From NCBI GenBank assembly GCA_028821265.1, contig JAPPGU010000033.1, positions 11,437 to 75,436 of the forward strand: DNA of 64,000 nucleotides, in the 5' to 3' direction. This document shows, in pieces, positions 37,538 to 64,000 of this stretch (the first letter of the stretch is position 1; every line of letters starts with the position of its first letter). The position numbers and the translations under genes are program-made. This stretch comes from a bacterium. Lineage in GTDB: Bacteria; Actinomycetota; Acidimicrobiia; Spongiisociales; Spongiisociaceae. The notes below the pieces were generated by a model, which made no database searches, was not told the DNA's origin, and worked only from the letters and a program-made list of their open reading frames with translations.

Positions 37538-39143
37538 GCACCGAGCCTACCCCGGGGAGAGGTCCGCGATTACCGGCGCCGATGCACTGATCGAATCGCT
37601 CCGGGTGAACGGCGTCCGGCACGTCTTCGGCATTCCGAGCACCCACACGCTCGAGATCTACCGCGCGCTGGGCAGGGCACCTGACATCGCGCACATCACC
37701 ACCACCCATGAGCAGGGTGCAGCCTTCATGGCGGATGGTTACGCCCGGGTGACCGGCAGCCCGGGGGTGTGCCTCATTACCACCGGGCCGGGCGTTACCA
37801 ATGCGGCAACCGCGATCGCCGAAGCCTATTCCGACTCCGTTCCGGTGTTCTGCATTACCGCCCACATCCCGAGCGAGGATATCGGGCGCGGCAGGGGTCA
37901 CTCGCACGAACTCCGTTCCCAGGAGAGCGTCCTGGAGGGCATCTCCGACAGGCCTCGGCTCGTGCTCTCGCCTGACGAGGTGGCTCAGGCGGTGTGCGAC
38001 GCGTTCCGGCGGTTCAGGACCGAGCGACCCCGGCCGGTGTGCCTGGCCATTCCCGTGGACGTGCAGGAGGCGGCGACCTCCGCCCCTGTTCCGGCCGCAC
38101 CCGCCGAGGATCCACCCGCTCCGGACGGGGACGCGGTTGGCAGGGCCTGCCGGCTGCTCGGTTCGGCCGCGGCGCCCGCCATCGTGGCAGGTGGCGGTGC
38201 TCAAGGGGCGGTCGAGGAGGTGTTGGCGATTGCCGAGCGACTTGACGCGCCCGTCGCAACCACGCTCAACGGGAAGGGGGTGGTCCCGGGCGGTCATCCT
38301 CTGGAGGCTTCGCTGGTTGTCTACAGCGCGGTGGCGCGTTTCCTCGAAGGGTGTGACGTGGTGCTGGCCGTGGGCACGGAGCTGAGCCCGGCGGACTTCT
38401 GGCTGGGCCCGCTGCAACTGGGTGGGAAGCTGGTACAGATCGACATCGACCGAGACCAGATCGGACGCAACCACCCGGTGGACGCGGCGGTGGTGGGGGA
38501 GGCCGGGACGGCGTTGGCGATGATGCTCGACTCCGTTGCGGGTTCGAGCCCCCGGGCTGGTGCTGCCCGTGCCGCCCATGTACGCGACGCGGCGGAGAAG
38601 GAGGCGTTGGTAATGGGCCGGACCTACCTTCCCTGGATCCGAGCCCTGCGGTCGGCTATGCCCGAGGAGTCCTCCCTCGCCCTGGATGTGGCGATGGTGG
38701 CCGGATTCGGCGCTTTCCCCTTCTACGACCTTCCCGGACCGCGGACATGGATCAACCCGTCCGGTCTGGCCACTCTGGGATACGCGTTGCCCGCGGCGAT
38801 CGGCGCCAAGATCGCCCGGCCCGACAGAGCAGTGGCCGCGCTGGTGGGGGACGGCGGGTTCATGTTCACAATGTCCGAGCTGATGGTGGCCGCGCAACAC
38901 CGGCTGGCGCTCCCGGTGGTCATCTGGAACGACCGGGCCTTCGGAGAGATAAGCCGCCTGATGCGGGAACGAGGGTTCGAGCCGTTCGCCACCGACCTGG
39001 CGGTCCCGGACCTGGCAACCCTGGCCTCCGCTTACGGAGCGGCATGGGCGCGCGCGGACGAGCCCCCCGATCTGGCGGACGCGGTGGAGGTTGCCCTGGC
39101 AGCCGACGGCCCGACCCTGATCGAGGTGCCCGCATGGTCATAA
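37536..39143 (+). CDS. thiamine-diphosphate enzyme, acetolactate-synthase-large-subunit-like, copy 1
   Basis: 535 aa. GADALIESLRVNGVRHVFGIPS, HEQGAAFMADGYARVTG, TTGPGVTNA and ThDP motif GDGGFMFTMSEL...VIWNDRAFG. Confidence 0.88.
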   Translation: MHRAYPGERSAITGADALIESLRVNGVRHVFGIPSTHTLEIYRALGRAPDIAHITTTHEQGAAFMADGYARVTGSPGVCLITTGPGVTNAATAIAEAYSDSVPVFCITAHIPSEDIGRGRGHSHELRSQESVLEGISDRPRLVLSPDEVAQAVCDAFRRFRTERPRPVCLAIPVDVQEAATSAPVPAAPAEDPPAPDGDAVGRACRLLGSAAAPAIVAGGGAQGAVEEVLAIAERLDAPVATTLNGKGVVPGGHPLEASLVVYSAVARFLEGCDVVLAVGTELSPADFWLGPLQLGGKLVQIDIDRDQIGRNHPVDAAVVGEAGTALAMMLDSVAGSSPRAGAARAAHVRDAAEKEALVMGRTYLPWIRALRSAMPEESSLALDVAMVAGFGAFPFYDLPGPRTWINPSGLATLGYALPAAIGAKIARPDRAVAALVGDGGFMFTMSELMVAAQHRLALPVVIWNDRAFGEISRLMRERGFEPFATDLAVPDLATLASAYGAAWARADEPPDLADAVEVALAADGPTLIEVPAWS

Positions 39144-40303
39144 CGGAGCGGTACCGGTCTCTCTTCCCGATCACCGAGACCCGCGCCTACCTCTTCGCCG
39201 GGGGTCTTGCCCCGGCCGCGATCCCGGTCAAGACGGCCCTCGACCGGTGGTCCGATCGGTGGATGTTCGATCCGGCGTATCACAGGGCGCGTTACTTCGA
39301 CGAGTGGGAGATGCTCAAGGCCCGGCTGGCGACCGTGCTGGGTGCTGATCCCGGCGAGATAGCCATCGTCGACAATACCTCTCGGGGGTCCAACCTGGCG
39401 GTCCAGATGATCGAACCGCCTCCCGGCGCCAACATCGTCACGGACCCGACCTCCCATCCGAGCGCCGTCTGGCCCTGGCTGCTGCCCGGCCGCCGCCCGG
39501 TCGAGGTCCGCTCGGTCCCTGACGGACCATCCTCCACCCGCATGATGGAGATCGAGAGCCTCGTGGACGAGAACACCATCGCGGTGCTCGTCTCTCACGT
39601 GGCTCCCCGCACCGGCTTCCGCCACGACCTGCGAAAGCTGGCCGAACTCACCCGCAGTTGTGGTGGTTACCTCATCGTCGACGCCGCCCAGTCGGCGGGC
39701 GCCGTTCCCATCGAGGCCGAGGCTGCCGGTGTCGACTTCATCAGCGGCACGCTGATGAAGTGGTTGCTCGGTCCGCCCGGGCTGGGATACCTCTACGCAC
39801 GCCGGGAGCACATCGAGTCTTTGGCGCCGCCCCACGTCGGCTACGTGGGTACCTACCAGGACGGCGGACCGGACGAGCCCGGCAACCTCTCGTACCGGCC
39901 CGGTGCGGCGCGCCACGAGATCGGTCTCGCGGATCTGCCGGGCATCGCGGCGGCGCGCAGGGGATTGGACATCATCCTCGAGGCGGGCATACGGGATATC
40001 GAACGGCATGTCCTGGAGCTGACCGGGCAGATGATCGACGGGTTGGTTGAACGGGGAATCCATATGCTGACCCCGGCGAGCCCGGCCGAGCGGGGCGGGG
40101 TGGTGAGCTTTCACTTCGACGGAGCGGTGCCGTTGTGCCGCCATCTGCGGAGGCTGGGCGTGGATGTATGGGGATATCCCGAGGACGACCGGGTCCGTGC
40201 CGACCCCCACCTCTACAACACTCCCGGCGACGTGGACCGCCTTCTCGAGGGAATCGACGCGTACCGGCGTGCGCCTGGCTCTGCCCGGACGTCGGCGGGG
40301 TAG
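39134..40303 (+). CDS. class V PLP aminotransferase-fold protein (cysteine-desulfurase/epimerase-like)
   Basis: From MVITERYRSLFP: VDAAQSAGAVPI and DFISGTLMKWLLGPPGLGYLY (PLP Lys). ATG 39134 overlaps the stop of the ThDP gene. Confidence 0.8.
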   Translation: MVITERYRSLFPITETRAYLFAGGLAPAAIPVKTALDRWSDRWMFDPAYHRARYFDEWEMLKARLATVLGADPGEIAIVDNTSRGSNLAVQMIEPPPGANIVTDPTSHPSAVWPWLLPGRRPVEVRSVPDGPSSTRMMEIESLVDENTIAVLVSHVAPRTGFRHDLRKLAELTRSCGGYLIVDAAQSAGAVPIEAEAAGVDFISGTLMKWLLGPPGLGYLYARREHIESLAPPHVGYVGTYQDGGPDEPGNLSYRPGAARHEIGLADLPGIAAARRGLDIILEAGIRDIERHVLELTGQMIDGLVERGIHMLTPASPAERGGVVSFHFDGAVPLCRHLRRLGVDVWGYPEDDRVRADPHLYNTPGDVDRLLEGIDAYRRAPGSARTSAG

Positions 40304-49717: not shown

Positions 49718-50644
49718 TCAGCCGGCGCCGTCCACGGCCAGGACTCGAGCCGGGTTGGTGTGGGTGATGTGGTGGATGGTCTCCTCGTCGACGCCCTCGT
49801 CGCGGAGCATCGGTAGGAAGCTGTCGATCAGATGCCTGTAGCCGTGGCCGCCGTTGGTCATCAGGCGCGGGCGGGCGGGCATGTCCTGTGCGACCAGCAG
49901 CCGGTCCCGGTGACCTCGACGGATCAACTCAGCCAGGAACTGGGCGCGCCGGTGGTCGGCGTTGATCCACTCGATTCCGATCAGGTCGAACTGGATGTAG
50001 GCGCCGGTCTGGGCGATGCGCTCCAACTCGTCCATCTCCAGCGTGTTGTCCAGGTGCCCGAAGATGATCCGGTCGGGCGGCACCCCCTCCTCCTTCAGGA
50101 TCTCGTGGAAGAGCAGAGCCGTGTGCGGCGGGGTGTGGGTGGTGATCGCCAGGCCGGTGGCATGGTGAGCCCGGGCGGCCGCGCGGATGACCCGCTCCTC
50201 GACCCCCTGCACCCAGCGCTTGTCGATGCCGATCTCGCCGATGATGCCCGGGCGGATGCCCGTGTCGGCCCAGCCGTTCTCGATCTCGTCGACGATGTAC
50301 TCGGCCAGCCGGCGCGTGGTCCACTTGTTGACGAACTCGGGGTAGTAGGGCTCCCGGTAGAAGCCGGTTCCCATCACGAGGTGCACACCGGTGGTTTCGG
50401 AGATCCGCCTCATCTCCTCCGGCTTCCGGCCTATGTGTTCCAGTCCGCAGTCGACGAGAGTGCCCCCGCCTGCATCCTTGTAGAAGCCGACCTCCTCGGT
50501 CATCTGGACCTCGTCGGTGATCGGCATGGCTACCCAGCGGTGCCGGGCCCACGAGATATCGGCGAAAATGTGATCGTGCGTCTGGGTGTGGCCCAGTTCA
50601 TCCGGCGAGACCGGCCCTCGCACGGTCATTACCTGCAACGCCAT
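49718..50644 (-). CDS. phosphotriesterase-family metal-dependent hydrolase, copy 2
   Basis: 308 aa. HTQTHDHIF (HxH), IIGEIGIDK, AITTHTPP, IIFGHLD and LVAQDM. Confidence 0.88.
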   Translation of the reverse strand: MALQVMTVRGPVSPDELGHTQTHDHIFADISWARHRWVAMPITDEVQMTEEVGFYKDAGGGTLVDCGLEHIGRKPEEMRRISETTGVHLVMGTGFYREPYYPEFVNKWTTRRLAEYIVDEIENGWADTGIRPGIIGEIGIDKRWVQGVEERVIRAAARAHHATGLAITTHTPPHTALLFHEILKEEGVPPDRIIFGHLDNTLEMDELERIAQTGAYIQFDLIGIEWINADHRRAQFLAELIRRGHRDRLLVAQDMPARPRLMTNGGHGYRHLIDSFLPMLRDEGVDEETIHHITHTNPARVLAVDGAG

Positions 50645-50732: not shown

Positions 50733-51329
50733 TCAGGGGCACATTTGCCATCCGAAGAACTCGGTCAGGACGGCCGACGCCTCCAGGACGTCGGCCTGTG
50801 CCTCCGCTATCAGGTCTGCGTCGCCCGATGCCCATCCTCGGGATCCCTCGTCGAAACCGGCGGCGTATGCCAGGACGCCCTCCCTTATGGACAGCAGCAG
50901 ATCCACGACCTCCCTTGGTGGAACTCCCATCAGATCGAGTTCCTCGACCAGCCCTAGGAGTCCGCGGCTCGCTTCCATCAGCCCGGTCGCGACCTCCGTG
51001 GGGTCCACGTGGTCAGGTGCTGAGTGGAGAAGGTCCGCGGCCTCCTCAACGATGGGCCGGAGCCGGACGAAAACCAGCCGGTCGAGCGCGACAGTGAAGC
51101 TGTCACACTCCTCCGAGGTTCCATCCAGCACCGGCGCGACCGAGACCCGCGTGCCGGTCGCTCGGGTGGTTGCGGCCGTGGCGGATGAGGCGACGGGGCT
51201 CGTGGTCGCCACGGTGGTTGTTGTGGGCGTGTCAGCCACCGGGCCGGTGGCAGGCGAGGGTGAGGCGCGGCATGCCCCCATCATGCAGGCAACCACGACG
51301 GCGATCGCGCAGAGGGCACTGGTCTTCAC
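50733..51329 (-). CDS. hypothetical lipoprotein with a T/S/A-rich linker
   Basis: 198 aa. MKTSALCAIAVVVACMMGAC signal/lipobox-like region, a T-rich linker, then a helical acidic domain bounded by Cys (EECDSF ... WQMCP). GTG start. No motif recognised. Confidence 0.55.
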   Translation of the reverse strand: MKTSALCAIAVVVACMMGACRASPSPATGPVADTPTTTTVATTSPVASSATAATTRATGTRVSVAPVLDGTSEECDSFTVALDRLVFVRLRPIVEEAADLLHSAPDHVDPTEVATGLMEASRGLLGLVEELDLMGVPPREVVDLLLSIREGVLAYAAGFDEGSRGWASGDADLIAEAQADVLEASAVLTEFFGWQMCP

Positions 51330-51385: not shown

Positions 51386-52156
51386 GTGAGGCTCGAAGGC
51401 AAGGTGGCGCTCGTGTCCGGCGCAGCCGGGGGCATGGGCGCTACCGAAGCAGCCCTGTTCGCCGAGGAAGGGGCTGCCGTCGTAGTCGGTGACATCGAAG
51501 CCGGGGCGGGGGAGGAGGTCGTGACCTCCATCACGTCCAAGGGGGCTACGGCGTCATTCATCGCACTCGACGTGACCCGGGAGGAGAGTTGGCGGCGGGT
51601 GGTGGAGGAGACGGTCGATCGCTTCGGGAGCCTGGACGTGCTGGTCAACAACGCCGGGACCGGCTCCCGCTCCTCCTTCGAGGACACGCCACTCGAGGAG
51701 TGGAACCGGGTCAACGACGTCAACCTGACCGGAACCTTCCTCGGAATCCGGGCTGTCCTGCCGGTGATGAAGGGCCAGCGATCCGGGTCGATCATCAACG
51801 TGTCGTCGGTTATGGGCATGCTCGGAGCCATCTACCCGGATCTGTCCGAGGCCCAGGCCCCTGCCTATGCGGCCTCGAAGGCGGCGGTCCGTCTCCTCAC
51901 CAGGACCGCTGCCGCCCAGTACGCCAGGTACGGGATCCGGGTCAATACGGTGGTGCCGGGATTCACGATGACCGAGATGGGTCGCTCGTCGTGGGAGGAT
52001 CCGGACCGGCGCTCCCTGTTCCTTCCCCACATACCGATGCAGCGCTGGGCGGAACCCGAGGAGATCGCCGGGGCGGTCCTGTTCCTGGCGTCGGATGACA
52101 GCTCCTACGTCACCGGCTCCGACCTGGTGGTCGACGGGGGGTACTCGGCGGTCTGA
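51386..52156 (+). CDS. short-chain dehydrogenase/reductase
   Basis: 256 aa. VALVSGAAGGMG, NNAG, SSVMG and YAASKAA. GAGGAG SD lies upstream of the GTG. Confidence 0.9.
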   Translation: MRLEGKVALVSGAAGGMGATEAALFAEEGAAVVVGDIEAGAGEEVVTSITSKGATASFIALDVTREESWRRVVEETVDRFGSLDVLVNNAGTGSRSSFEDTPLEEWNRVNDVNLTGTFLGIRAVLPVMKGQRSGSIINVSSVMGMLGAIYPDLSEAQAPAYAASKAAVRLLTRTAAAQYARYGIRVNTVVPGFTMTEMGRSSWEDPDRRSLFLPHIPMQRWAEPEEIAGAVLFLASDDSSYVTGSDLVVDGGYSAV

Positions 52157-52205: not shown

Positions 52206-53564
52206 TCAATCCCGCTCGAGTTCGGCGAGCGTGCTCCCGACGGCATGTGAGATGTAGTCGGCCTGGGGGATCGTAAGGCAAAGGGGAGGGGTGATCCTCA
52301 TCACGTGGCCGGTGCTCGATATCACCACGCCCCTGCGCAGTAGACCCCGCAGCACCTCGCGGATGAAGTCACCGGATACGGGGGTGCGGGTGGCCCGATC
52401 ACGGACCATCTCGACACCGATGGCCAGGCCCAGGCCCCGGACGTCCGCTACGTTGCGACGTTGCTCCAGGCGCTCTGCGAGCGCCGTCCGCAGGTGTTGG
52501 CCGACGCGGGAGGCGTTGTCCACCAAGCCCTCTTCGAGCAAAGCGGTCAGCGCAGCGAAACCCGATGCGCAGGCGAGCGGGTTGCCGCCGAAGGTGCTGC
52601 TGTTGTGGGTGGGTTGCGCACCAGGACCGGCGTCCATGACGTGCCGGGGACCGGCCACGATCCCGAGGGGGAAGCCTCCGCCGATGCCCTTGCCGAGTAG
52701 GAGGAGATCGGGCACCACGCCGGAGTGCTCGTAGGCCCAGAGCCGGCCGGTACGGCCGCCTCCGGTCAGTATCTCGTCGAACATGAGCAGAGCCCCCGTC
52801 CGGTCGCAGAAAGCCCTGACGGACTCGAGGAAGGCGGCGGGGACGGGAATCATACCCCCGGCCCCCTGCATGGGCTCGATGATGACCGCGGCAGGTGGGC
52901 CGGCCAGCACCTGCCCCGCCACCCGGTCGAGGTGCCGGGCGCATGCCTCGACCCGCCGGGCTTCGCTCTGGTGCGGTGTCTCCATCGGATCGGGGGCCAC
53001 CGCATGCACCACCCCCGGCAGGAACGGCCCGAGGCCCTCCCGACCCGCTCCCGAGGTAAGAGAGAGCGCCCCCAGCGTCCTTCCGTGGTAGCCGTTGTGA
53101 AAGGCGATCACCTCGTGGCGCCCTGTGGCCGAGCGGACCGTGCGGAGGGCCGCCTCCACGGCCTCGCTCCCGGAGTTGGCGAGGTGGAAGGCATCGAGAC
53201 TATCGGGCAGGGTGCTCCTGAGTAGTTCTACGAACCGCACCCGGACCTCGGTGGCGAAGTCGTAGAAGTGGGTCAGCAGCCGGGCCTGTTCCCCGAGGGC
53301 GGTCGCCACCGCCGGATGCCCGTGGCCCAGGTTCATCACCACGGTGCCGGCGCACGCATCGAGGAGCCAGTTTCCGTCGGCGTCCCGGATCATGGCGCCG
53401 CGCCCTTCGACCACGGCCAGTTCCGACCACAGCGAACCGGCGGAGTTGCCGGCCGCGAGCAGGCTCTGATCCTGCTGGAAGATCGCCCTGGACCTGGGGC
53501 CGGGCACCTCCGTGACGAGCTTGGGTAGCTCCGGGGTACCGGATGGGTTGCCGCTGTGGTTCAT
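52206..53564 (-). CDS. class III PLP aminotransferase (GABA/omega-aminotransferase-like)
   Basis: 452 aa. NSGSEAVEAALRTVR, FDEILTGGGRTGRLWAYEH and LLLGKGIGGGFPLG (PLP Lys). Confidence 0.9.
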   Translation of the reverse strand: MNHSGNPSGTPELPKLVTEVPGPRSRAIFQQDQSLLAAGNSAGSLWSELAVVEGRGAMIRDADGNWLLDACAGTVVMNLGHGHPAVATALGEQARLLTHFYDFATEVRVRFVELLRSTLPDSLDAFHLANSGSEAVEAALRTVRSATGRHEVIAFHNGYHGRTLGALSLTSGAGREGLGPFLPGVVHAVAPDPMETPHQSEARRVEACARHLDRVAGQVLAGPPAAVIIEPMQGAGGMIPVPAAFLESVRAFCDRTGALLMFDEILTGGGRTGRLWAYEHSGVVPDLLLLGKGIGGGFPLGIVAGPRHVMDAGPGAQPTHNSSTFGGNPLACASGFAALTALLEEGLVDNASRVGQHLRTALAERLEQRRNVADVRGLGLAIGVEMVRDRATRTPVSGDFIREVLRGLLRRGVVISSTGHVMRITPPLCLTIPQADYISHAVGSTLAELERD

Positions 53565-53616: not shown

Positions 53617-55221
53617 CTAGTCCCGGCCGTCGATCGGATCGATGCCCAGGTCGGCGATGCCGAGCCGGGCTTCGATCAGGCTCGGTTCGCCGGTTCCCAC
53701 ATGTTTGCTGAGAGCAGCCTCCAACGCGTCAGGGGTGTCGGCTCGCGACGCACCCATCCCGAATGCTCGCGCGGCGGCCGTGAAGTCGGGTTGTTCTAGG
53801 TCGACGCCGAACCGGCGCCCCCCGCAGGACGTGTCCTGCACCTCGGCGATGATCCCGTAGGAGCGGTTGTTGTACACCACCAGGCACACGGGCAGCTCAT
53901 GCTCCACGGCAGTCGCCAATTCCCCGAGCGTGAACAGAGCTCCGCCGTCTCCCATCACCGCCAGCACGGTCTCGTCCGGTGCGGCGGCCTGCACGCCCAG
54001 GGCGGCTCCGTATGCCCATCCGAGGGTCTGGAAGTTCCAAGGGGTCATGAGCCGGCGGTCAGGTCCCAGAGGCACTCCGCCGGGGATCCACCGCGAAGCC
54101 ATCGTCACGTCACCGCAGATCGTCACGCCACGGGACGGCAGCGCCCTGTCGATCGGATCCGTCCACGGATGAGAGGCGGTCACCGGGTCGATCTCCGTCC
54201 GGGGGTGGCCGGGGCGGGTCCGGTGGCGGCCCATCGTCTCTGCGAGCGAGGCAAGGAAGGGACCGATGTCGGCTTGGATGGCCATATCCGGCTCGTAGTG
54301 CTGTCCGAGGCTGGCACGATCGATATCGACGTGGATGAGCGAGCCACCGATGCGGAGCGTCCAACCTGCGGTGGAGGCCCATCCGAAGCTCGTGCCGAGA
54401 GCCAGGACCAGGTCGGCCCGCTCCACGACGGCCCGGGTGGTGTCATTGTCCATGACGCCCGTCCAGCCGCTTTCGCGATCGGCCGCGGAGCGGCCTGCGA
54501 CCGTCGTAACCACCGGCAAGCCTGTGCTGCGAAGGAGGCGCGCCAGCTGAGGCTCTGCCCGTCCCCGCACCACCCCGGCACCGGCCAGCACTACCGGGTC
54601 GGTAGCGGCAGCGAGAAGCTTGGCGACTTGGCCGACTTCGTCGCTCGTGGACATCGGATACTCCGGTCGGGGCTTCTCACGGGCAGCAGGTTGCGGAGTC
54701 TCCGGCGCCTCCAGGGCGGCGCGGCTGATGAGCACCACACCGGGTCCGGGACGACCCGCGACGCAAGATCGCAGCACCTCTGTGACGGAGGCGGCAATCG
54801 ATGCGCCGGTGTCCGCACGCACCACCCGTGCTCCGGTGGCTTCCGCCAGCGCGGCCTGGTCGAGTGCTTCGTGCGGGAGTCCGAGGGGCCGGCCACGCCG
54901 CTGGGACGGATTGTGATCGCTGGCGATGACCACCACAGGCGACGAGTCCGCGTACGCGGTCTGCAGTCCGGTGACCGTGTTCCCGAGTCCGGGACCCCCG
55001 GTGACCACCACCACCCCGGGTTCGCCCGAGCGGCGAGCGTAGCCGTCGGCCATGAAGGCGGCGGCCTGCTCGTTGCGAGCCACTATCGACCTCATGCCTC
55101 CCTGGCGGCCGATGGCGTCGTAGATCTCCACGGTGTAGCTGGCCGGGATACCGAAGACGGTAGTGACACCGCCCTCGATCAGGGCCGCGACCACCGCGTC
55201 ACCGCCGTTCGGGACCGCCAT
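53617..55221 (-). CDS. thiamine-diphosphate enzyme, acetolactate-synthase-like, copy 2
   Basis: From MAVPNGGDAVVAALIEGGVTTVFGIPAS: NEQAAAFMADGYARRSG, VTGGPGLGN and GDGGALFTLGEL...VVYNNRSYG. ATG 55221 overlaps the upstream PTE stop by 1 nt (TGATG). The track ORF extension to 55986 is rejected. Confidence 0.88.
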   Translation of the reverse strand: MAVPNGGDAVVAALIEGGVTTVFGIPASYTVEIYDAIGRQGGMRSIVARNEQAAAFMADGYARRSGEPGVVVVTGGPGLGNTVTGLQTAYADSSPVVVIASDHNPSQRRGRPLGLPHEALDQAALAEATGARVVRADTGASIAASVTEVLRSCVAGRPGPGVVLISRAALEAPETPQPAAREKPRPEYPMSTSDEVGQVAKLLAAATDPVVLAGAGVVRGRAEPQLARLLRSTGLPVVTTVAGRSAADRESGWTGVMDNDTTRAVVERADLVLALGTSFGWASTAGWTLRIGGSLIHVDIDRASLGQHYEPDMAIQADIGPFLASLAETMGRHRTRPGHPRTEIDPVTASHPWTDPIDRALPSRGVTICGDVTMASRWIPGGVPLGPDRRLMTPWNFQTLGWAYGAALGVQAAAPDETVLAVMGDGGALFTLGELATAVEHELPVCLVVYNNRSYGIIAEVQDTSCGGRRFGVDLEQPDFTAAARAFGMGASRADTPDALEAALSKHVGTGEPSLIEARLGIADLGIDPIDGRD

Positions 55222-56195
55222 CACACCATCGCCAGGACAGAGGCCGGGTTGGTGATCATGCACCGGTCCACGACATCGCCCGGGACACCCTCTCCGACGG
55301 CCAGAGCCCGGAACCCGGTGATGAGATGGGCTAGGCCGGGGCCGCCGTTGACCGTGAGGTGCCTCCTCCTGCATAGGTCGCTGGCCACGATGATCCGATC
55401 GGCCAGACCCTCCTCGGCCAGCCGGCGCAACGCTCCGGCGCGCACGCGGTCGGTCGTCATCTGTACCCCGAGCGTCTCGGTGTAGTACTCGTACCCGATG
55501 GTGTCGAACTGTGCGTAGGCACCCCGTTCGATGATGCGGCGGACAAGCCCCAGGTCGGGCTCGGTGTCGTCGAGGTGCCCGACGACTATCCGCTCGGGGG
55601 CCAACCCCGTCGACGTGAGCACGTCGATCTGGTCGAGGGCGTTGCGCCCCAGATACGTGTGGGTGGACACCGCCACGCCGGTCTCGACGGCTGCCAGCGC
55701 CGACGCCCTGAACACGGTTGTCTCGCGTTCGGTCATCGGTCCGGTATAGGTGCCCTGTTCGCCGATGATCCCGGCCCGGATCCCCGTCCCGTCCACACCG
55801 TCGGTGATCTCCCCGATCAGTATCTCGGCGATCTGGTCGGCGGTCAGGCCGGCGATGCGGTCTGGATGGAACGGTTCGTGATAGATGCCCGCTCCCATCA
55901 CGACATGTACGCCGGTTGCTTCCGATGCATGTAAGAGGCCGCCGGGATCTCGTCCCATGCCCATCGGCGTGAGTTCGACCAGGCACGTACCTCCCGCCCG
56001 GGCGTAGGACCGCAACTCGGGCAGGGTGTCCTCGATCGATAGCATGTGATCGCCGTAGCGTTCCGCGGTCTCGCTCCAGTCCGGATGCGCCTGCTCCTCC
56101 GTACCCAGCGACAGGTGGGCGTGGGCATTCGTCAGACCCCAGTCGGCCGCCGGCACGTCTCCTCGTACCGTCCTGATCAGACCCGGCGAGCGCAT
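55221..56195 (-). CDS. phosphotriesterase-family metal-dependent hydrolase, copy 3 (tandem pair, distal)
   Basis: 324 aa. TNAHAHL (HxH), GIIGEQGTYTG, AVSTHTY, VVGHLDD and VASDL. Confidence 0.88.
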   Translation of the reverse strand: MRSPGLIRTVRGDVPAADWGLTNAHAHLSLGTEEQAHPDWSETAERYGDHMLSIEDTLPELRSYARAGGTCLVELTPMGMGRDPGGLLHASEATGVHVVMGAGIYHEPFHPDRIAGLTADQIAEILIGEITDGVDGTGIRAGIIGEQGTYTGPMTERETTVFRASALAAVETGVAVSTHTYLGRNALDQIDVLTSTGLAPERIVVGHLDDTEPDLGLVRRIIERGAYAQFDTIGYEYYTETLGVQMTTDRVRAGALRRLAEEGLADRIIVASDLCRRRHLTVNGGPGLAHLITGFRALAVGEGVPGDVVDRCMITNPASVLAMV

Positions 56196-56303
56196 GCTGT
56201 CAACCGCTCCGCGGAGATCCGGCGGTCCTGCCGGCTCCGTCGAAGGTCCCGTTCGGCCGGCAAGCAGCGCGCAGCCGCCCGGTCGGGGAAGTAGGCGTCA
56301 GTT

Positions 56304-57269
56304 TCACGGCATGGTCAGAACGGTTGCCGGGTTGGTGATCATGCACTGGTCGAGCACCTCTTCGGGGACTCCTTCGGCCAGAGCCGTCCGGCGGAACCCG
56401 TCCGCCAACACCACCAGACCCGGTCCACCACGGACCTGCAGGTGCCGCTGCATTCCGAAGTCGCTGGCGAGGATCACCCGGCCGGCCAGGCCCTCCTCCG
56501 CCAGCTGGAGCAGCTTGGCGGCTCGGACGACGTCGGTGGTCATCTGGACCTTGAGCCTCTCCGTGTAGTACTCGTAGCCGATGTCGTCGAACTGTGCCCA
56601 GGCCCCCCGTTTGATGATCTCGCGGATCAGGTCGAGGTCCGGCTCACCGTCGTCGAGATGCCCGATGACGATCCGGTCCGGGGCGAGTCCTTGGGAGGTG
56701 AGCACGTCGATCTGGTCCAGGGCGTTGAGACCCAGGTGGGTGTGGGTGGTGACCGCCACTCCGGTCTCCATAGCGGCCATGGCAGACGCGCTGAACACGA
56801 CCTTCTCGCGTTCGGTCATCGGGCCGGTGAAGGTGCCCTGCTCCCCGATGATGCCGGCGCGCACACCCGTGCCGTCCACCCCCTCGGTGATGTCCCGGAC
56901 CAGGATCTCGGCGATCTCCGCTTCGTCCAGGCCGGCTATCGACTCGGGATGGTGGGCGTCGTGATAGATGCCCGTGCCCATCACGATGTGCATCCCGGTC
57001 TGCTCGGAGGCCCGCACGAGGGCCGCCGGGTCCCGTCCCATGCCTGCCGGGGTCAGATCGACCAGGCAGAACCCGCCGGCGCGGGCGAAATCCTCCACCT
57101 CGGGGAGGCTGTCGTCGAGGGTCATGGTGAGCTCTGCCGCGTCCGTGGTGTCGAAGGGGGGCTTGGAGGTGTCGGGCACGCCGACCAGATGGGCATGAGC
57201 GTTGGTTATCCCCCAGGGCTCGGGCGGTACGTCGCCCAGCACCGTCCGTATCAGACCCGTTCGGGTCAC
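56304..57269 (-). CDS. phosphotriesterase-family metal-dependent hydrolase, copy 4 (tandem pair, proximal)
   Basis: Full-length paralogue of copy 3 (TNAHAHL, GIIGEQGTFTG, AVTTHTH, VIGHLDD, LASDF). GTG 57269 is preceded by GGGGAGGA and matches the N-terminus of the paralogue. The alternative ATG is 57302. Confidence 0.85.
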   Translation of the reverse strand: MTRTGLIRTVLGDVPPEPWGITNAHAHLVGVPDTSKPPFDTTDAAELTMTLDDSLPEVEDFARAGGFCLVDLTPAGMGRDPAALVRASEQTGMHIVMGTGIYHDAHHPESIAGLDEAEIAEILVRDITEGVDGTGVRAGIIGEQGTFTGPMTEREKVVFSASAMAAMETGVAVTTHTHLGLNALDQIDVLTSQGLAPDRIVIGHLDDGEPDLDLIREIIKRGAWAQFDDIGYEYYTERLKVQMTTDVVRAAKLLQLAEEGLAGRVILASDFGMQRHLQVRGGPGLVVLADGFRRTALAEGVPEEVLDQCMITNPATVLTMP

Positions 57270-57320
57270 TCCGTCATCCTCCCCGGTCGGTCTGCTGTGC
57301 ATGTCGAAGGGCGCGTGAAG

Positions 57321-59123
57321 TCAGGCGGTTCGACCCTTCTCGGTACCCGCCGCCAGTATGTCGTTCACGTCCCAATGACCTGATCCGATGATGCGGGGAT
57401 ACGGTGTAACCGGCACTTCGAGTACCCAGGTGCCGCGTTCCTCCAAGGCCTTGGACAGAAGCCCGGGGAAGTCATCCGGGTCGGTCACCCGCTCCGCACG
57501 GGCGCCGAAGGAGCGGGCGAACGCCACATAGTCGAGATCGTAGGAAACACCTTCGGGGTCCTTGAAATAGGTGCCGGCGTCCCGCCCGTAGTGTTTGTTC
57601 TGGTACAGGGCGATCGACGCGTAACCCGTGTTGTTGGCTATCAGCCAGACCGCGTCGATGCCCGCTGTCACCGCGGTGGGGAGCGCCGCGAGGCACGCCA
57701 TCACCGCCCCGTCGCCCACCAGAGCTACCACCGGCACGTCCGGGCGGGCCCGCCGCACTCCTATCGGAGCGGCCACTTCCTGGCCCATGGTCCCGAACCC
57801 GCTGGCCACGATCTGGGTGCCCTCATTCAAGAACGGGTAGTGCTGCCCGATGGCATGGCGGATTCCCACACCCGTGACCAGGATCGTGTCGGGCGGCAGC
57901 AGCTCGCGCAGCAGGGTTCCCAGGTAGGCCGGTTCGTACGGGAAGCTCGGAGCGGTGCGGACCTCATGGAGGTCGTCCGCCCAGGTCTGCTTCTCGCCGG
58001 CCAACTCCTCGCGCCAGGCATGCCACGGGTCTGCTCCGTTCATGCGGTCTTCCAGCGCGGCGGCCAGTTCCTCGAGGGACCGGCGGGCATCACCTACCAG
58101 GCCGACATCGGTGGGGTAGATCTTGCCGATCTGGTTGGGGTCTATGTCGATATGGATCAGCTTGGCGGGCGGGATGGGGGTGAAGTACTCCGGCCTCCAG
58201 TTGTTGCAGTCCATCTCCGGGAACCGGGTGCCGACCGCCACCAGCAGGTCGGCCCTTCTCGCCGCGTTGTTGCCCGGCCTGGTCCCCACGACGCCCGTGT
58301 AACCGATCGCCAGCGGGTGGTCCTCGGCGATGGCGCCCTGCCCGCTCATGGTTGTGGCGACCGGTAGCCCGAACTCATCGGCGAGGCGCGTCACCGCCCC
58401 GGAGGCCCGCGAGATGATGGCGCCGCCTCCCGCGAATACGAGCGGGCGTTCGGCTCGGGCGATCAGATCGGCAGCCCGCTCCATCTCGGTGGAGTCGGGG
58501 CCGCTGCGGCCGGACCGGGCGGGTCGGAGCCTGGCAACCGAAGGCTCTACCCATGCCGAGAAGAAGTCGAGCGGGACCTGCAGGACGACCGGGCCCGGAC
58601 ACCCCGCCAGCGCGTAGCGCACCGCCCGGTGGAACTGGTTGGCGAGTTCGGCGGCGCCGGTTGCCTGGATGATCCGTTTGGTGAGAGGGCGGGCGATGTC
58701 GATCTGGGCGTTGTCGATCGAGTAGGAGAGTTCCTGGAGGGGCTCCTTCCCTACGTAGGCGCTCGGCATCCCCCCGGCTATCACCACCATGGCCGACGAG
58801 TCGAGCATGGCGTCCCCGAGTCCGGTCATCAGGTTCGTGAACCCCGGTCCCACTGTGGTTGTCACGACCGAGATCCGTCCGCCCGCCCGGAAGTAGGCGT
58901 CGGCGGCGTGGGCGGCCACCTGCTCGTGGAACACGGTGACATAGTCGATCGTGTCGCTGTCCGCCAGGGCGTCCACGAATGCGAGGTTGCCGTGACCGAC
59001 CAACCCGAAGACCGTGTCGATCCCCTCAAGTTCCAGGGCACGCACGAGCGATGCCGCGCCGGTTATCTGAGTCGGATCGCCCGTAAGTCCACCCCTGTCG
59101 GTGAGCGGATTGTACACGTGCAC
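57321..59123 (-). CDS. thiamine-diphosphate enzyme, acetolactate-synthase-like, copy 3 (600 aa)
   Basis: GAASLVRALELEGIDTVFGLVGHGNL, HEQVAAHAADAYFRAGG, TVGPGFTNL and GDGAVMACLAAL...LIANNTGYA. Confidence 0.88.
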   Translation of the reverse strand: MHVYNPLTDRGGLTGDPTQITGAASLVRALELEGIDTVFGLVGHGNLAFVDALADSDTIDYVTVFHEQVAAHAADAYFRAGGRISVVTTTVGPGFTNLMTGLGDAMLDSSAMVVIAGGMPSAYVGKEPLQELSYSIDNAQIDIARPLTKRIIQATGAAELANQFHRAVRYALAGCPGPVVLQVPLDFFSAWVEPSVARLRPARSGRSGPDSTEMERAADLIARAERPLVFAGGGAIISRASGAVTRLADEFGLPVATTMSGQGAIAEDHPLAIGYTGVVGTRPGNNAARRADLLVAVGTRFPEMDCNNWRPEYFTPIPPAKLIHIDIDPNQIGKIYPTDVGLVGDARRSLEELAAALEDRMNGADPWHAWREELAGEKQTWADDLHEVRTAPSFPYEPAYLGTLLRELLPPDTILVTGVGIRHAIGQHYPFLNEGTQIVASGFGTMGQEVAAPIGVRRARPDVPVVALVGDGAVMACLAALPTAVTAGIDAVWLIANNTGYASIALYQNKHYGRDAGTYFKDPEGVSYDLDYVAFARSFGARAERVTDPDDFPGLLSKALEERGTWVLEVPVTPYPRIIGSGHWDVNDILAAGTEKGRTA

Positions 59124-59184
59124 CGTCTTGCGGCCGGTGCCGCCCTGGCAGGACAGGACACGGGACGATGGCCGTCAGGGTCGG

Positions 59185-59265
59185 CGCCGGTAAGCCATTT
59201 GGACAATTGGTACTAGCTGTTTGAGAGCAGTTAGATCTCGCTCTAGATGGTGGTTTCGCGTGCGG
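59185..59265. repeat. AT-richer CTAG-containing intergenic segment, possible diverged relative of the TAGTTG element
   Basis: agatctcgctctagatggtggtttcgcg resembles copy A agatctagttgttggtttctag. It also contains actagc, agatct and tctaga palindromes. Similarity is weak. Confidence 0.3.
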
Positions 59266-59272
59266 GCTGAGG

Positions 59273-60205
59273 TCAGACCGCGCCTGCGGAGCGGGCGACC
59301 TCGGGGTCCATCACGTCGCGGACCGCGTCGCCCAAGTTGTTGAAGGCCAGGATGAGCAGGGTGATCACCAGAGCGGGGGATATGGCCATCCACGGGGCGA
59401 GGGTCAGGAAGTCGACCGAGTTGGCGAGCATCCTCCCGAGATCGGCGGTGGGAGGCTCGAAGCCGAAACCGAGGAAGCTCAGGGCGGTCTGCACCAGCAA
59501 CCCGGTGGAGAGGCTGAGCACGCACATCACGAACAGGGGAGAGCTGATGCCCGGCAGGATGTGTCGGGTGACGAGGGCCAGCGGCTTGGTGCCCGACAGG
59601 CGGGCGGCATCGACGTAGGGGAGGCCGCGGACTTCCAGGGTGGAACCGCGGGCGATACGGGTGAAGCGGGGGAGGTAAATGACCCCGATGGCCAGGATCA
59701 TGTTGCGCGACCCTCCTCCGAACACGCCGACGATGAGGATGGCGGTGAGCAGGCCGGGCATGGCCAGCAGCACGTCGGTTCCCGCCATCAGCACCCTCTC
59801 CAGCCATCCCCGGCGGTATCCGGCGAGGATGCCGATGGCGCTCCCGGCGGTCACGGCCAGGATGACCGCGCCCAGTGGCACCCAGATGACCACCGGGATG
59901 GCGCTCACCACCCTGGCAGCGAGATCCCGGCCTAGTTGGTCGGTCCCGAACCAGTGCCGGGCGGACGGTCCCTGGAGGGAGTCGGCCGGGTTGATCTGGA
60001 TGGGATCCCAGTGGATCACCAGAGGTCCGGCGATGGCGAGGATCAGCACGGGGGCGATCAGCAGAAGGCCGAACCTCCCGGAGGGATGCCTGGCCACGGC
60101 ACGGAGTTGGTGCCAGAAACGAGCGTTGCGGATCCCGGGGGTTTCCCCGGCTCCCCGCCTCTCCACCGTAGAGAGGGCGTCCGGCAGCGGGTGCGGTGTG
60201 GTCAT
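59273..60205 (-). CDS. ABC transporter permease (DppC/OppC-like), second importer
   Basis: 310 aa. HWFGTDQLGRDLAARV and YVDAARLSGTKPLALVTRHILPG. The ATG overlaps the upstream stop (ATGA). Confidence 0.9.
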   Translation of the reverse strand: MTTPHPLPDALSTVERRGAGETPGIRNARFWHQLRAVARHPSGRFGLLLIAPVLILAIAGPLVIHWDPIQINPADSLQGPSARHWFGTDQLGRDLAARVVSAIPVVIWVPLGAVILAVTAGSAIGILAGYRRGWLERVLMAGTDVLLAMPGLLTAILIVGVFGGGSRNMILAIGVIYLPRFTRIARGSTLEVRGLPYVDAARLSGTKPLALVTRHILPGISSPLFVMCVLSLSTGLLVQTALSFLGFGFEPPTADLGRMLANSVDFLTLAPWMAISPALVITLLILAFNNLGDAVRDVMDPEVARSAGAV

Positions 60206-61152
60206 GTCTGTTCCCGCTGTCTCGGGTCCAGGATGGGGTAGAGGAGGTCCACCATGAAGTTCACCACTATGTAGACGCTGGCGATGACCAGCGTGGCCGC
60301 TATCACGTACGGGAAGTCACGTTCCGCGATGCCGAGCAATACCCCGCGGCCCAGCCCGGGCAGGTTGAAGATCTGCTCCACGATGATCAGACCACCGACG
60401 AGGGCTCCGAACAGTAGACCGATCAGCGTGACCACGGGTCCGAGCGAGGCTCGGAGCGCGTGGATGTACCGGACCCTGCTCTCCCTGGCGCCCTTGACGC
60501 GGGCCGTATCGACGAACGGTTCCTGCAGGCTGGCGATCATCGTGGTGCGGGTCATCTGGATGATCGAGGCGGACGTGGGAAGGGCGATGGCCAGGCACGG
60601 CAACATGACCGACCGCAGGTTGGCGATCGGATCCTCGGTGAACGGCACGTAGAACGACGTGTAGAAGGACCTGAGGACGATCGATCCCAGCCACACGAAC
60701 AGGACTCCCGATACGAAGGTCGGGACCGAGAAGAACACCAGGGAGATACCTCTCAGGACCCTGTCCACGATCGTGCCGGTGTTCACGGCGGCGTACACGC
60801 CGAGCGGGATGCCGATGATCACCGCCAGCAGGACGCTGAGGAAGGCCACCTCCAGGGATACCGGGAACTGCTGCCGGACATCGGCGGCGATATTGCGTTC
60901 CGTGAACAACGAATGGCCGAAGTCGCCCCTCACCGCATTGCCCAACCACTCCCCGTACCTCACCATCAGCGGGCGGTCCAGCCCGAGACGGGCCCGCATC
61001 TCGGCCATCCGCTCGGGCGTGGCGCCCTCGATGCCCGCCATCTGTTGGGCGATGTCACCCGGGACGATGGTCCCGATCACGTAGATCAGGAACGTCAGCA
61101 CGAACAGCACGGCCACCGCCTCGGCGAACCTACGGACGGTGAAGAGGATCAT
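60202..61152 (-). CDS. ABC transporter permease (DppB/OppB-like), second importer
   Basis: From MILFTVRRFAEAVAVLFVLTFLIYV, with FVDTARVKGARESRVRYIHALRASL. ATG 61152 overlaps the upstream ATPase stop. The track ORF extension to 61851 is rejected. Confidence 0.88.
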   Translation of the reverse strand: MILFTVRRFAEAVAVLFVLTFLIYVIGTIVPGDIAQQMAGIEGATPERMAEMRARLGLDRPLMVRYGEWLGNAVRGDFGHSLFTERNIAADVRQQFPVSLEVAFLSVLLAVIIGIPLGVYAAVNTGTIVDRVLRGISLVFFSVPTFVSGVLFVWLGSIVLRSFYTSFYVPFTEDPIANLRSVMLPCLAIALPTSASIIQMTRTTMIASLQEPFVDTARVKGARESRVRYIHALRASLGPVVTLIGLLFGALVGGLIIVEQIFNLPGLGRGVLLGIAERDFPYVIAATLVIASVYIVVNFMVDLLYPILDPRQREQT

Positions 61153-62162
61153 GCCGAAGCCCCGGAAGTCCCGGCGCCGGTCGCGGCGTAGCGGCTGTCG
61201 AACTCCCCGGCGAAATGGCATGCGACCCGGCTGGTTGGCGAGGCCCTGACCAGCTCCGGCTCCGCGTCGGAGCAGAGCGGTTGGGCGATCGGGCACCGGG
61301 TGTGGAACCGGCAGCCGGACGGGAGTTCGGTGGCGCTGGCCACCGGCCCGGTCAGCACTATGCGGTTGCGGCGGCGTTCCACGACCGGATCCGGCACCGG
61401 CACCGCCGACCGCAGCGTGATGGAGTACGGATGGACGAGCGGGCTCGTCCGGTCGTGAGAGTCTTCGAGTTCGACGATCTTGCCTAGGTACATGACCGCC
61501 ACGCGGTCGCTCATGAAGTCGACCGCGGCGATATCGTGGGAGATGAAGACGTAGTTCACCGCGTGGCGTTCCGCAAGGTCCTTGAGCAGGTTCAGGACCT
61601 GTGCCTGGGTCGACATGTCCAGGGAACTGACCGCCTCGTCGAGCACGATCAGCCGGGGCCTCCCGGCCAGGGCCCTGGCTATCGCCGCCCGCTGCTGCTG
61701 CCCTCCTGAGAGTTGACCCGGGTACTGGTCGATCAGCGAATCGGGGAGTCCCACCTGGTCGAGCAGTTCCAGGACCCGCTCGCGCATCTCGGGTTTCCTC
61801 ATGCCCTCGTTCCTGAGCGGCTCGGCGATGCTCCAGCCGATCCGCTTCCAAGGGTTGAGGGATCCGGCCGCGTCCTGGTACACCATCTGGAAACCGTCGG
61901 CTCGAGCGTTGGCGCCCGGACGCTGGCGGAGCGACCGCTTCTCACCCCGCACCACCACGTCACCCGAAGTGGGTCGCTGCAACCCGACGATCACCCGGCC
62001 CAGGGTGGTCTTCCCGCAGCCCGACTCGCCGACGATGCCGAGCACCTCGCCCTCGTTGATGGTCAGGTCCACGCCGTCGACGGCGCGCACGATCCCGCCC
62101 GCCCGTCCGCGCCTGCGAAGCCGGAAGTGAACCGAGACGCCTTCGAGCCGTAGTAGGGCCAT
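61149..62162 (-). CDS. peptide-type ABC transporter ATP-binding protein (DppF-like), second importer
   Basis: From MALLRLEGVSVHF: [29 protein letters not shown] and CRFHTRC. Confidence 0.9.
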   Translation of the reverse strand: MALLRLEGVSVHFRLRRRGRAGGIVRAVDGVDLTINEGEVLGIVGESGCGKTTLGRVIVGLQRPTSGDVVVRGEKRSLRQRPGANARADGFQMVYQDAAGSLNPWKRIGWSIAEPLRNEGMRKPEMRERVLELLDQVGLPDSLIDQYPGQLSGGQQQRAAIARALAGRPRLIVLDEAVSSLDMSTQAQVLNLLKDLAERHAVNYVFISHDIAAVDFMSDRVAVMYLGKIVELEDSHDRTSPLVHPYSITLRSAVPVPDPVVERRRNRIVLTGPVASATELPSGCRFHTRCPIAQPLCSDAEPELVRASPTSRVACHFAGEFDSRYAATGAGTSGASA

Positions 62163-62170
62163 CCCGTCGC

Positions 62171-63223
<1,053 letters not shown>

Positions 63224-63240
63224 TCAAAGGCGATGGCCGG

Positions 63241-63272
63241 GGCCGGGTGGGCCGTTGCAGCCCCACCCGGCC
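63241..63272 (-). terminator. intercistronic GC hairpin directly after the SBP gene of the second importer
   Basis: ggccgggtggg (63241-63251) pairs with cccacccggcc (63262-63272), an 11-bp perfect stem with a 10-nt loop. Same design and position as 45217-45248. Confidence 0.5.
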
Positions 63273-63284
63273 GCTGATTGCGAG

Positions 63285-64000
63285 TTATCCGGCCGGAACC
63301 AGCGAGAGGTACAGAACCCGCTTGTCGCCGGTGATGTAGGTACCCAGGTCCGCGTTGGCGAGCAGATCGTTGTGGTACACGTGCGACGCGTTGGCGTAGA
63401 CGGTGCCCGTGTAGGGGTACACGTTCTCGGCCTCGAGCCTCTGGATCCGCTGGAAGATCTCGGGCCGCTCCTCCTGGGAGGCCGCCGCCAGGGCGTCCAG
63501 TTCGGGGATCAGCTCGGGAAGGATCTCCTCCGGGGGAGCCTGCCAGCCGGTCCTGGGCAGGACGTACCGGTAGGGGTTCGAGTACCAGCCCTGGTCCGTG
63601 GCCGACAGGTCGTAGTCCGCGTTGATCAGCTTCGGTATCCAGACCGCCTGCTCCACCGGGTTGAGGGTCACGTTGATCCCGGCTTCCGCCCAGGAGGCCT
63701 GGAGGACCTCGAAGAACACGTCCTCGTACGGGACCCGGGTCGGGTAGGTGAACACGAGGTCGACGCCGTCGGTGTAGCCGGCCTCGGCCAGGATCTGCTT
63801 GGCCGCCTCGACATCCCGCTGGTAGTTGGGCAGGTCGTCGGGTCCCAGGCCGTACGCGACCGACGGATGGGAAGTCGACCACGGGAACGCCTCGCCGAGG
63901 AAGGCGATATCGACCAGGGCCTGACGATCCATGGCGAGCCACAGTGCCTTGACCACGGCCTCGTCACGGGTCGCGCCTACCCGGCTGGCATGGATCCAGA
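63285..64000 (-). CDS. ABC substrate-binding protein, family 5, C-terminal part (gene continues beyond the window edge)
   Basis: Contains VVKALWLAMDRQALVD (the conserved A(L/I)xxA(I/M)DR segment), AKQILAEAGY and INVTLNPVEQAVW. The frame is open to the window end according to the ORF track. Confidence 0.8.
   Translation of the reverse strand, partial: WIHASRVGATRDEAVVKALWLAMDRQALVDIAFLGEAFPWSTSHPSVAYGLGPDDLPNYQRDVEAAKQILAEAGYTDGVDLVFTYPTRVPYEDVFFEVLQASWAEAGINVTLNPVEQAVWIPKLINADYDLSATDQGWYSNPYRYVLPRTGWQAPPEEILPELIPELDALAAASQEERPEIFQRIQRLEAENVYPYTGTVYANASHVYHNDLLANADLGTYITGDKRVLYLSLVPAG

Follow-up and report, generated by a model that had tools for sequence, protein, structure and literature searches.

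A window of 64,000 nucleotides (positions 11437-75436 of contig C71, in an assembly of 2.6 Mb and 87 contigs) carries, on its minus strand, a gene cluster that encodes an ATP-binding cassette (ABC) importer of the Dpp type, two thiamine diphosphate (ThDP) enzymes resembling acetolactate synthase (ALS) and named here ThDP600 and ThDP535 after their lengths, several hydrolases of the phosphotriesterase (PTE) family, and a class-III pyridoxal phosphate (PLP) aminotransferase. The individual proteins come from ordinary enzyme families. Their combination is conserved and without a name, and it includes an orphan family, as the bacterial Php-type PTE proteins have been since the 1990s. An earlier note on this DNA had singled out the block as an apparently undescribed enzyme combination and as a candidate for an uncharacterised catabolic system. 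Literature searches aimed at the cluster yielded no description of it, and no named pathway matched it; its conservation as a set and the fact that its enzymes fall outside the named families support the catabolic reading. There is, in our judgement, about an even chance that the cluster constitutes an accessory, horizontally mobile pathway for the catabolism of a small imported amino compound.

Conservation and organization of the cluster

The close relatives of the organism are sponge-associated Acidimicrobiia (Ca. Spongiisociaceae / Ca. Spongiisocius), and the order ThDP600, PTE4, PTE3, ThDP535, aminotransferase, (short-chain dehydrogenase/reductase, SDR), lipoprotein, PTE2 recurs in 12 species-level genomes of this group. 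Among 25 genomes of the family, orthologues of ThDP600 and ThDP535 were present in 11 and 9, respectively, always co-located and neighbouring. Neither occurs in the 16 genomes examined from the order's other families, where the sole match was a 38% identical paralogue of ThDP600, and none of 400 evenly drawn Actinomycetota has an orthologue of the type-B PTEs described below. By these sequence comparisons, the distribution of the cluster is accessory. ThDP600 orthologues are 80-98% identical within the family, 60% in the distant locus L007 and 55% in Agromyces aerolatus. The SDR gene is a variable member, found in loci L001, L011 and L014 and absent from L015-L021, and the 198-aa lipoprotein gene stands between the aminotransferase and PTE2 genes in 10 sponge-lineage loci. 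In one complete relative genome (G024), the ThDP600 orthologue at C1:1873165-1874946 (minus strand) contains three in-frame TAG codons and is probably a pseudogene.

Outside the family, related loci at 45-76% identity were encountered in Chloroflexota-type and unassigned metagenome contigs, so that the core is conserved beyond this genome at both distances, a co-conservation on which the earlier note had made its reading depend. Parts of the system are carried by Anaerolineales and Chloroflexi metagenome-assembled genomes and by Microbacterium ulmi. BLAST and tree analysis separated two orthologous PTE types, type A (PTE2 and its copy PTE2b; 55-76% identical across lineages) and type B (PTE3 and PTE4; 46-56%), and the gene order in the distant loci is PTE-A, AP_endonuc_2, PTE-B, ThDP enzyme, aminotransferase, adjoining an importer with a solute-binding protein (SBP) of the SBP5 type. 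In these loci, AP_endonuc_2 and PTE-B are preceded by a PTE of 303-305 aa with 55-76% identity to PTE2; PTE3 clades with the distant type-B orthologues, the AP_endonuc_2 protein of the contig is 62-63% identical to those of the distant operons, and the aminotransferase is 58-59% identical to its counterparts. In L023 and L007 the order is SBP5, D, F, B, C, ThDP585, PTE (305 aa), AP_endonuc_2, PTE (314-330 aa), ThDP530-545, aminotransferase, at approximately 45-60% identity, an arrangement that looks like the ancestral operon when the sequences are compared; L009 holds the same type of gene set, rearranged and with an IclR regulator. A further version (L063, L036) comprises ThDP549, aminotransferase, Aldedh, SDR, SBP5-ABC, PTE-A, PTE-B, SDR, GNAT and SGL, with the ThDP enzyme, aminotransferase and Aldedh genes contiguous in L063. 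Constant across loci are PTE-A, PTE-B, the aminotransferase and the SBP5 importer, and in loci carrying PTE-B, ThDP535 and the aminotransferase, the three genes overlap or lie at most 20 nt apart. Because the distribution is patchy and PTE-A is 70-76% identical between phyla, the data suggest horizontal transfer of the cluster.

The transporter genes are less constant within the family, as some genomes have, in their place, divergent GFO_IDH_MocA and SDR genes upstream of the enzyme genes and an ABC system of the Bmp type downstream. The link to the Dpp importer, which the earlier note had included in the block, is thus lineage-specific, and the enzyme genes therefore probably form a transcription unit of their own. 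Since the genes upstream of ThDP600 in those genomes are the divergent GFO/SDR pair and not a transporter, ThDP600 must be able to start its own transcript, for which the promoter is probably located in the spacer at 59124-59272. A sigma-70 consensus scan of this 149-nt spacer gave no match, promoter and terminator scans being uninformative for this high-GC actinobacterium.

Window genes were typed by Pfam and their junctions were read directly from the sequence (Table 1), which recovered all ten genes listed in the earlier note, with their minus-strand orientation, order and junctions. The boundaries given there require extension: a start at 53617 omits the aminotransferase that the same text names, and the unit reaches 49718 inside the window and extends on the contig beyond 64000. 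The opposite-strand SDR, the 198-aa lipoprotein and PTE2 genes are located downstream of the aminotransferase, and beyond the window end are the remainder of the SBP gene, about 1.2 kb long, and a gene for an exported lipoprotein whose domain is of the gluconolactonase-like SGL type. Divergent from the SBP and SGL genes are a gene for a TIM-barrel protein of the AP_endonuc_2 family and then PTE2b. Neighbouring genes are closely packed, with ATGA overlaps at 61149-61152 and 60202-60205, and gaps of 8 nt (62162/62171), 52 nt (53564/53617), 149 nt (59123/59273) and, between PTE4 and PTE3, 108 nt. At the PTE3/ThDP535 junction (55219-55227, GTGTGATGG), ThDP535 starts either at GTG 55224, with a 4-nt overlap, or at ATG 55221, with the 1-nt overlap noted earlier as TGATG. 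The gap between ThDP600 and PTE4 measures 18 nt with ATG 57302 as the PTE4 start and 51 nt with GTG 57269; the latter is the likelier start on sequence grounds, because a GGAGGA site precedes it and it yields a protein of 321 aa, as in the orthologues. PTE3 and PTE4 are 66% identical.

Table 1. Features of the cluster and its flanks (window positions unless a contig is named)
Feature	Position	Strand	Basis or remark
SBP_bac_5 solute-binding lipoprotein, C-terminal 237 aa	63285..64000	-	Pfam PF00496; full gene 651 aa at C71:74721-76676
DppD/OppD-type ABC ATPase	62171..63223	-	ABC_tran + oligo_HPY; below every NCBIfam equivalog cut-off
DppF/OppF-type ABC ATPase	61149..62162	-	ABC_tran + oligo_HPY; 8-nt gap upstream, ATGA overlap downstream
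DppB-type permease	60202..61152	-	BPD_transp_1_N + BPD_transp_1
DppC-type permease	59273..60205	-	BPD_transp_1 + OppC_N
149-nt spacer, probably promoter region of enzyme genes	59124..59272	-
ThDP600, ALS-like ThDP enzyme, 600 aa	57321..59123	-	three TPP domains
PTE4, type-B Php/PTER-clade hydrolase, tandem copy, likely 321 aa	56304..57269	-	PF02126 (longer open reading frame to 57302)
PTE3, type-B Php/PTER-clade hydrolase	55221..56195	-	PF02126
ThDP535, ALS/AruI-like ThDP enzyme, 535 aa, probably 2-oxo-acid decarboxylase	53617..55224	-	three TPP domains
Class-III (GabT/OAT-like) PLP aminotransferase (Aminotran_3)	52206..53564	-	PF00202, 344 bits
SDR oxidoreductase, lineage-limited insertion	51386..52156	+	adh_short_C2
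Conserved 198-aa lipoprotein	50733..51329	-	signal peptide with Cys; no Pfam family
PTE2, type-A Php/PTER-clade hydrolase	49718..50644	-	PF02126, 210 bits
PTE2b, fourth PTE, 76% copy of PTE2	C71:79026-79940		behind AP_endonuc_2 gene, past window end

Enzyme families and competing explanations

The PTE domains score 177-228 bits against PF02126 (cut-off 22.4), and the ligand set H,H,E,H,H,D is intact in all 16 paralogues that tblastn detected in the genome. By these residues the cluster PTEs belong to the Glu-bridged Php/PTER clade and not to the Lys-bridged phosphotriesterases and lactonases. It is accordingly hardly credible that they serve detoxification or quorum quenching, as phosphotriesterases or acyl-homoserine-lactone lactonases with unrelated neighbours. 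Pfam membership and weak structure matches to organophosphate hydrolase (OPH) and phosphotriesterase-like lactonase (PLL) speak for such a role, but all copies have Glu at the bridging position, where PTE and PLL enzymes use a carboxylated Lys, the OPH model gives the two PTEs 99 and 87 bits against a cut-off of 500, and the PTEs are tightly coupled in translation to ThDP535 and the aminotransferase across phyla, which favours a single pathway. In the Anaerolineales-type PTE-B orthologues P0090-P0093 (L005 and L009; alignment A1), Lys replaces the bridging Glu (GII-KVAT vs GIIGEQGT), so that the bridging ligand would have switched between Glu and Lys inside one orthologous group.

The nearest solved relatives of PTE3 in the PDB are E. 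coli Php (1bf6, the top match at 145 bits) and, in second place, a sponge PTER (9efa), which is also the best match of PTE2 (160 bits), with Php near the top. PTE3 and PTE4 reach only 175 and 152 bits against the E. coli Php equivalog (NF007373, cut-off 486). Php (YhfV, from yhfS-yhfX) resembles the cluster enzymes in being a Glu-bridged orphan hydrolase of the PTE family encoded beside PLP enzymes, at an identity of only about 30%; to our knowledge, the yhfS-yhfX operon contains no ThDP enzymes, AP_endonuc_2 protein or SBP5 importer. The presence of two distinct and always paired hydrolases in the cluster suggests two sequential bond openings or a heteromer.

Plain orthology to established enzymes, which the earlier note had regarded as the alternative, did not emerge, as no cluster enzyme reaches the NCBIfam equivalog cut-off for IlvB, IolD, Xsc, AruI, GabT or Php. 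ThDP600 and ThDP535 score 353 and 254 bits as IlvB (TIGR00118, cut-off 538), where the true IlvB of the genome, on contig C3, reaches 770 bits, and 252 and 180 bits as Xsc (PRK07525 / TIGR03457, cut-offs 620 / 676), where the true Xsc, at C70:11098-12699 (minus strand), reaches 870 / 854 bits; the canonical taurine desulfonation step is thus encoded outside the cluster. ThDP600 was likewise rejected as IolD (TIGR04377; 251 bits vs 715, with ThDP535 outside the top 25 matches) and as Gcl (280 bits vs 791), and the AruI subfamily (NF005712, cut-off 500) gives 294 bits for ThDP535 and 268 bits for ThDP600; IlvB, IolD, Xsc, Gcl and AruI are thereby excluded as identities of both ThDP enzymes. The best NCBIfam match of ThDP535 is PRK08266 (317 bits vs 571), followed by the AruI subfamily, and the enzyme is probably a 2-oxo-acid decarboxylase by sequence similarity. 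For the putative aminotransferase, the best equivalog is NF004426 (345 bits vs 552) and GabT gives 242 bits vs 507; its nearest PDB chains are 7vno from P. horikoshii, a mycobacterial GabT and class-III racemases. Elsewhere in the window (37536-40303, plus strand), a second pair of a ThDP decarboxylase and an aminotransferase was observed, in which a class-V aminotransferase gene and an SDR gene follow the ThDP gene (37536-39143); the ThDP enzyme scores 493 bits against the AruI subfamily, just below the cut-off of 500.

Among the solved structures, ThDP600 lies nearest to BbmA and plant acetohydroxyacid synthase (AHAS), and the carboligases BbmA and CsmA are among its relatives. Together with the abundance of secondary metabolism in sponge symbionts, this could point to a biosynthetic cluster in which ThDP carboligases and the aminotransferase make a small natural product. 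Such a function is very improbable: nearly all lineages have SBP-dependent importers adjoining the cluster, IclR regulators and aldehyde dehydrogenase occur in variants and, like the importers, are markers of catabolism, and the loci contain no exporter, nonribosomal peptide or polyketide synthase, ligase or tailoring enzyme.

Also to be weighed is a pathway of the PTER type, with short N-acylated omega-amino acids (N-acetyltaurine, N-acetyl-beta-alanine and pantothenate-like pseudo-dipeptides) as substrates. In such a pathway the PTEs would deacylate the substrate, the aminotransferase would produce sulfoacetaldehyde or malonate semialdehyde, and a ThDP enzyme would act like Xsc. Amidase, class-III aminotransferase and ALS-family ThDP enzyme form the known logic of N-acetyltaurine and taurine degradation (NaaS, Tpa, Xsc), in which the ThDP enzyme consumes an aldehyde, and the gene logic of the cluster is the same. 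The only natural substrates known to us for the Glu-bridged clade come from animal PTER (2024-2026), and we know of no ThDP partner of that enzyme. PTER hydrolyses N-acetyltaurine and N-acetyl-beta-alanine (PMC11374699, PMC13311154), and taurine is a major sponge metabolite (PMC11525543). The rank of the sponge PTER among the PDB matches of PTE2 and PTE3 also speaks for this pathway. The precedent of PTER, whose amine products suit class-III aminotransferases, implies that the clade is capable of hydrolysing small polar amides to amines that such aminotransferases can use. Nevertheless, this pathway is improbable. Arg209, Arg238 and Tyr268 of PTER surround the sulfonate (PMC12873775), and this set is not retained in the cluster PTEs: in an HMMER alignment to 9efa, PTE2 (type A) has Pro and Asn at the Arg209 and Arg238 positions, and type B has Asp at the latter. 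The ThDP enzymes are not Xsc, no locus encodes a sulfite exporter, sulfite dehydrogenase or Pta, and AP_endonuc_2, GFO_IDH_MocA, SGL and the SDRs would be left without explanation. With the sulfonate residues not conserved and the true Xsc located elsewhere, N-acetyltaurine was rejected as substrate.

The importer has the components of the PepT (Dpp/Opp/Nik) group (TC 3.A.1.5), namely an SBP_bac_5 protein, two BPD_transp_1 permeases and two ATPases with ABC_tran and oligo_HPY domains, and reaches no specific NCBIfam equivalog (DppA, NikA, GsiB, Opp). The PDB relatives of the SBP (GsiB, AccA, AgaA, DppA) are distant, at 105 bits or less, and have mixed ligands, so that assigning a ligand from solved relatives was abandoned. 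The SBP has a lipobox followed by a linker of approximately 130 residues, rich in Ala, Glu and Gln and coiled-coil-like, before the SBP_bac_5 domain; Thr/Pro-rich linkers occur in the SGL lipoprotein and in the 198-aa lipoprotein, of which the latter has a helical domain after the linker and matches no Pfam family.

The AP_endonuc_2 protein (PF01261, 75 bits) has the E-D-H-E metal site of the TIM-barrel family, with E137, D176, H203 and E263 invariant. Its AlphaFold2 model (mean confidence, pLDDT, 91.8) would, by Foldseek (probability 1.0), share its fold with the isomerase Art22, AsbF, IolI and ketose 3-epimerases. The protein matches no NCBIfam model and only two PDB entries, both weakly, the fold search yielding generic keto-sugar isomerases. 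The SDR falls in the 'glucose 1-dehydrogenase' subfamily NF005559 (245 bits vs cut-off 215).

These families raise the option of an oxidative pathway for a sugar or amino sugar, in which an SDR or GFO_IDH_MocA enzyme would oxidise the sugar to a lactone, a PTE would open it, and deamination and decarboxylation of the keto acid would follow, the PTEs and SGL acting as lactonases and not as amidases. Some PTE-family members are sugar-lactone lactonases (model NF045706), the SDR exceeds the cut-off of its glucose-1-dehydrogenase subfamily, SGL, GFO_IDH_MocA and AP_endonuc_2 recur beside the core, and a related module in Agromyces, described below, has sugar-type DegT and PIG-L enzymes. A role of the PTEs purely as lactonases is still rather unlikely, as SDR and GFO_IDH_MocA are not universal, the known PTE sugar lactonases act on phosphorylated lactones and their model gives 88 bits vs 630, and the sponge loci lack a sugar-acid dehydratase, kinase or aldolase. 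This option is, moreover, a sub-case of catabolism of an imported amino compound rather than a true alternative to it.

A possible catabolic route and its relation to known systems

For the catabolism of a small imported amino compound, we infer the following order of steps, types of bond and class of substrate. The SBP5/Dpp-type importer would take up the compound, which the exported SGL-like lipoprotein and the second lipoprotein may pre-process or capture outside the cell. Type-A (PTE2/2b) and type-B (PTE3/4) hydrolases would then open two bonds, each an amide, lactam, lactone or ester, PTER offering the precedent in this clade for cleavage of amides, and the class-III aminotransferase would turn the freed amino group into a carbonyl. 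ThDP535 would decarboxylate or cleave the carbonyl compound, with an aldehyde dehydrogenase added in some variants, and the AP_endonuc_2 protein (as isomerase, epimerase or dehydratase), the SDR and ThDP600 would act on a hydroxylated part of the skeleton that resembles a sugar, cyclitol or polyol, rearranging and cutting it. Such a part is proposed because AP_endonuc_2, SDR, GFO_IDH_MocA and SGL recur and the Agromyces cluster points the same way. The substrate might be a polyhydroxylated amino acid or amino sugar in N-acylated or lactone form, perhaps similar to opines or Amadori compounds, a specification that we regard as doubtful. The chemistry that the earlier note had proposed keeps the status of a proposal, in contrast to co-conservation and non-orthology of the enzymes, which held.

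Several observations weigh against this route. ThDP535 is missing from L017 and L019, which keep the remaining genes, and in one Anaerolineales version (L005) no ThDP gene is intact. Family scores without exception fall far under the equivalog cut-offs and assign a substrate to no enzyme, and the sponge loci include no regulator, kinase or aldolase that would point to an end product. The decarboxylase role of ThDP535 is itself insecure, because class-III aminotransferases mostly take omega-amines and would deliver aldehydes and not 2-oxo acids. In L005, a 99-aa open reading frame with a weak TPP_enzyme_C match (18298-18597, plus strand), located after the permease genes, seems to be what is left of a lost ThDP gene. 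The argument that a glycyl-radical enzyme replaced the ThDP enzyme is weakened by this remnant in the Anaerolineales locus, and the glycyl-radical enzyme encoded there, tried as IslA in parallel to taurine and isethionate metabolism, is nearer to glycerol/diol dehydratases (681 bits) than to IslA (465).

The AruH-AruI-KauB pathway of Pseudomonas proceeds through an aminotransferase, an ALS-family ThDP decarboxylase and an aldehyde dehydrogenase, as the L063 genes would. The same logic was adopted for the ThDP535 step because the triad of PTE-B, ThDP535 and aminotransferase is fixed and L063 has the contiguous trio. The scores given above exclude ThDP535 as AruI, AruH belongs to the class-I/II aminotransferases, and the Aru pathway has neither hydrolases nor a TIM-barrel enzyme. 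Catabolism of myo-inositol (IolG, IolE, IolD) and of rhizopine/inosamine (Moc) shares with the cluster GFO_IDH_MocA, AP_endonuc_2 and an ALS-family ThDP enzyme, which there acts as a C-C hydrolase on a polyhydroxylated ring, and the fold search placed IolI and IolE near the AP_endonuc_2 protein. However, ThDP600 is far from IolD, the Agromyces AP_endonuc_2 reaches 35 bits against IolE (cut-off 290), homologues of IolB, IolC and IolJ are absent from the cluster, and GFO_IDH_MocA is present in only some loci. Mannityl-opine and Amadori systems (AgaA, MoaA, Soc, Frl) use SBP5-type importers for sugar-amino-acid conjugates that have lactone and lactam forms, and FrlC is an AP_endonuc_2 enzyme. AgaA and AccA, among the PDB relatives of the cluster SBP, match it at only 89-98 bits, and the known opine and Amadori pathways rely on oxidases, kinases/deglycases or hydantoinase-like lactamases and not on PTE or ThDP enzymes.

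A PTE-free cluster in Agromyces aerolatus (L026, JAVKGP010000012.1) encodes an SBP5-ABC importer, two PIG-L/BshB-like deacetylases, a DegT sugar aminotransferase, two AP_endonuc_2 proteins, two ThDP enzymes, one of them the 55% identical relative of ThDP600, and a CMD protein. By analogy, this module would be an equivalent set of deacylase, aminotransferase, TIM barrel and ThDP enzyme recruited from other families. Related clusters in cultured Microbacteriaceae make follow-up work practical, and A. aerolatus offers an entry point to the function of ThDP600. The fixed cross-phylum context of importer, aminotransferase, two non-canonical ThDP enzymes and TIM-barrel isomerase narrows the chemistry of the two Php/PTER-type hydrolases and provides a direct route to deorphanising Php-type PTEs.

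The PTE family is expanded in this lineage, with 17 Pfam matches (16 by tblastn) in the 2.6-Mb genome, spread over contigs C71, C9, C65, C40 and C42. In the comparison with relatives G001-G024, genomes of the same family have 0-19 copies, against 0-2 in 16 genomes from the order's remaining families. It is conceivable, if somewhat less than probable, that bacterial Php/PTER-clade enzymes serve in nature to open the ring of, or to deacylate, a polyhydroxy amino compound that stems from the host or from detritus, that the two ThDP enzymes perform a new C-C cleavage or decarboxylation, and that the PTE expansion marks a family of pathways feeding sponge symbionts. If so, the large number of PTE genes in Ca. 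Spongiisociaceae, which reaches 19 copies in 3 Mb, would signal a whole pathway family. The cluster, accessory and probably horizontally transferred in its distribution, also points to a nutrient class possibly relevant for the metabolism of sponge symbionts.

Two further PTE loci were observed in the same genome. The gene at C65:4567-5643 (plus strand) encodes the only paralogue with Arg at the Arg238 position of PTER and is, from this residue, a better candidate for an N-acetyltaurine-type hydrolase than the PTEs of the cluster. A second island, at C9:125756-145572, packs into 20 kb the genes for a ThDP enzyme, class-III and class-V aminotransferases, an SDR and three PTEs.

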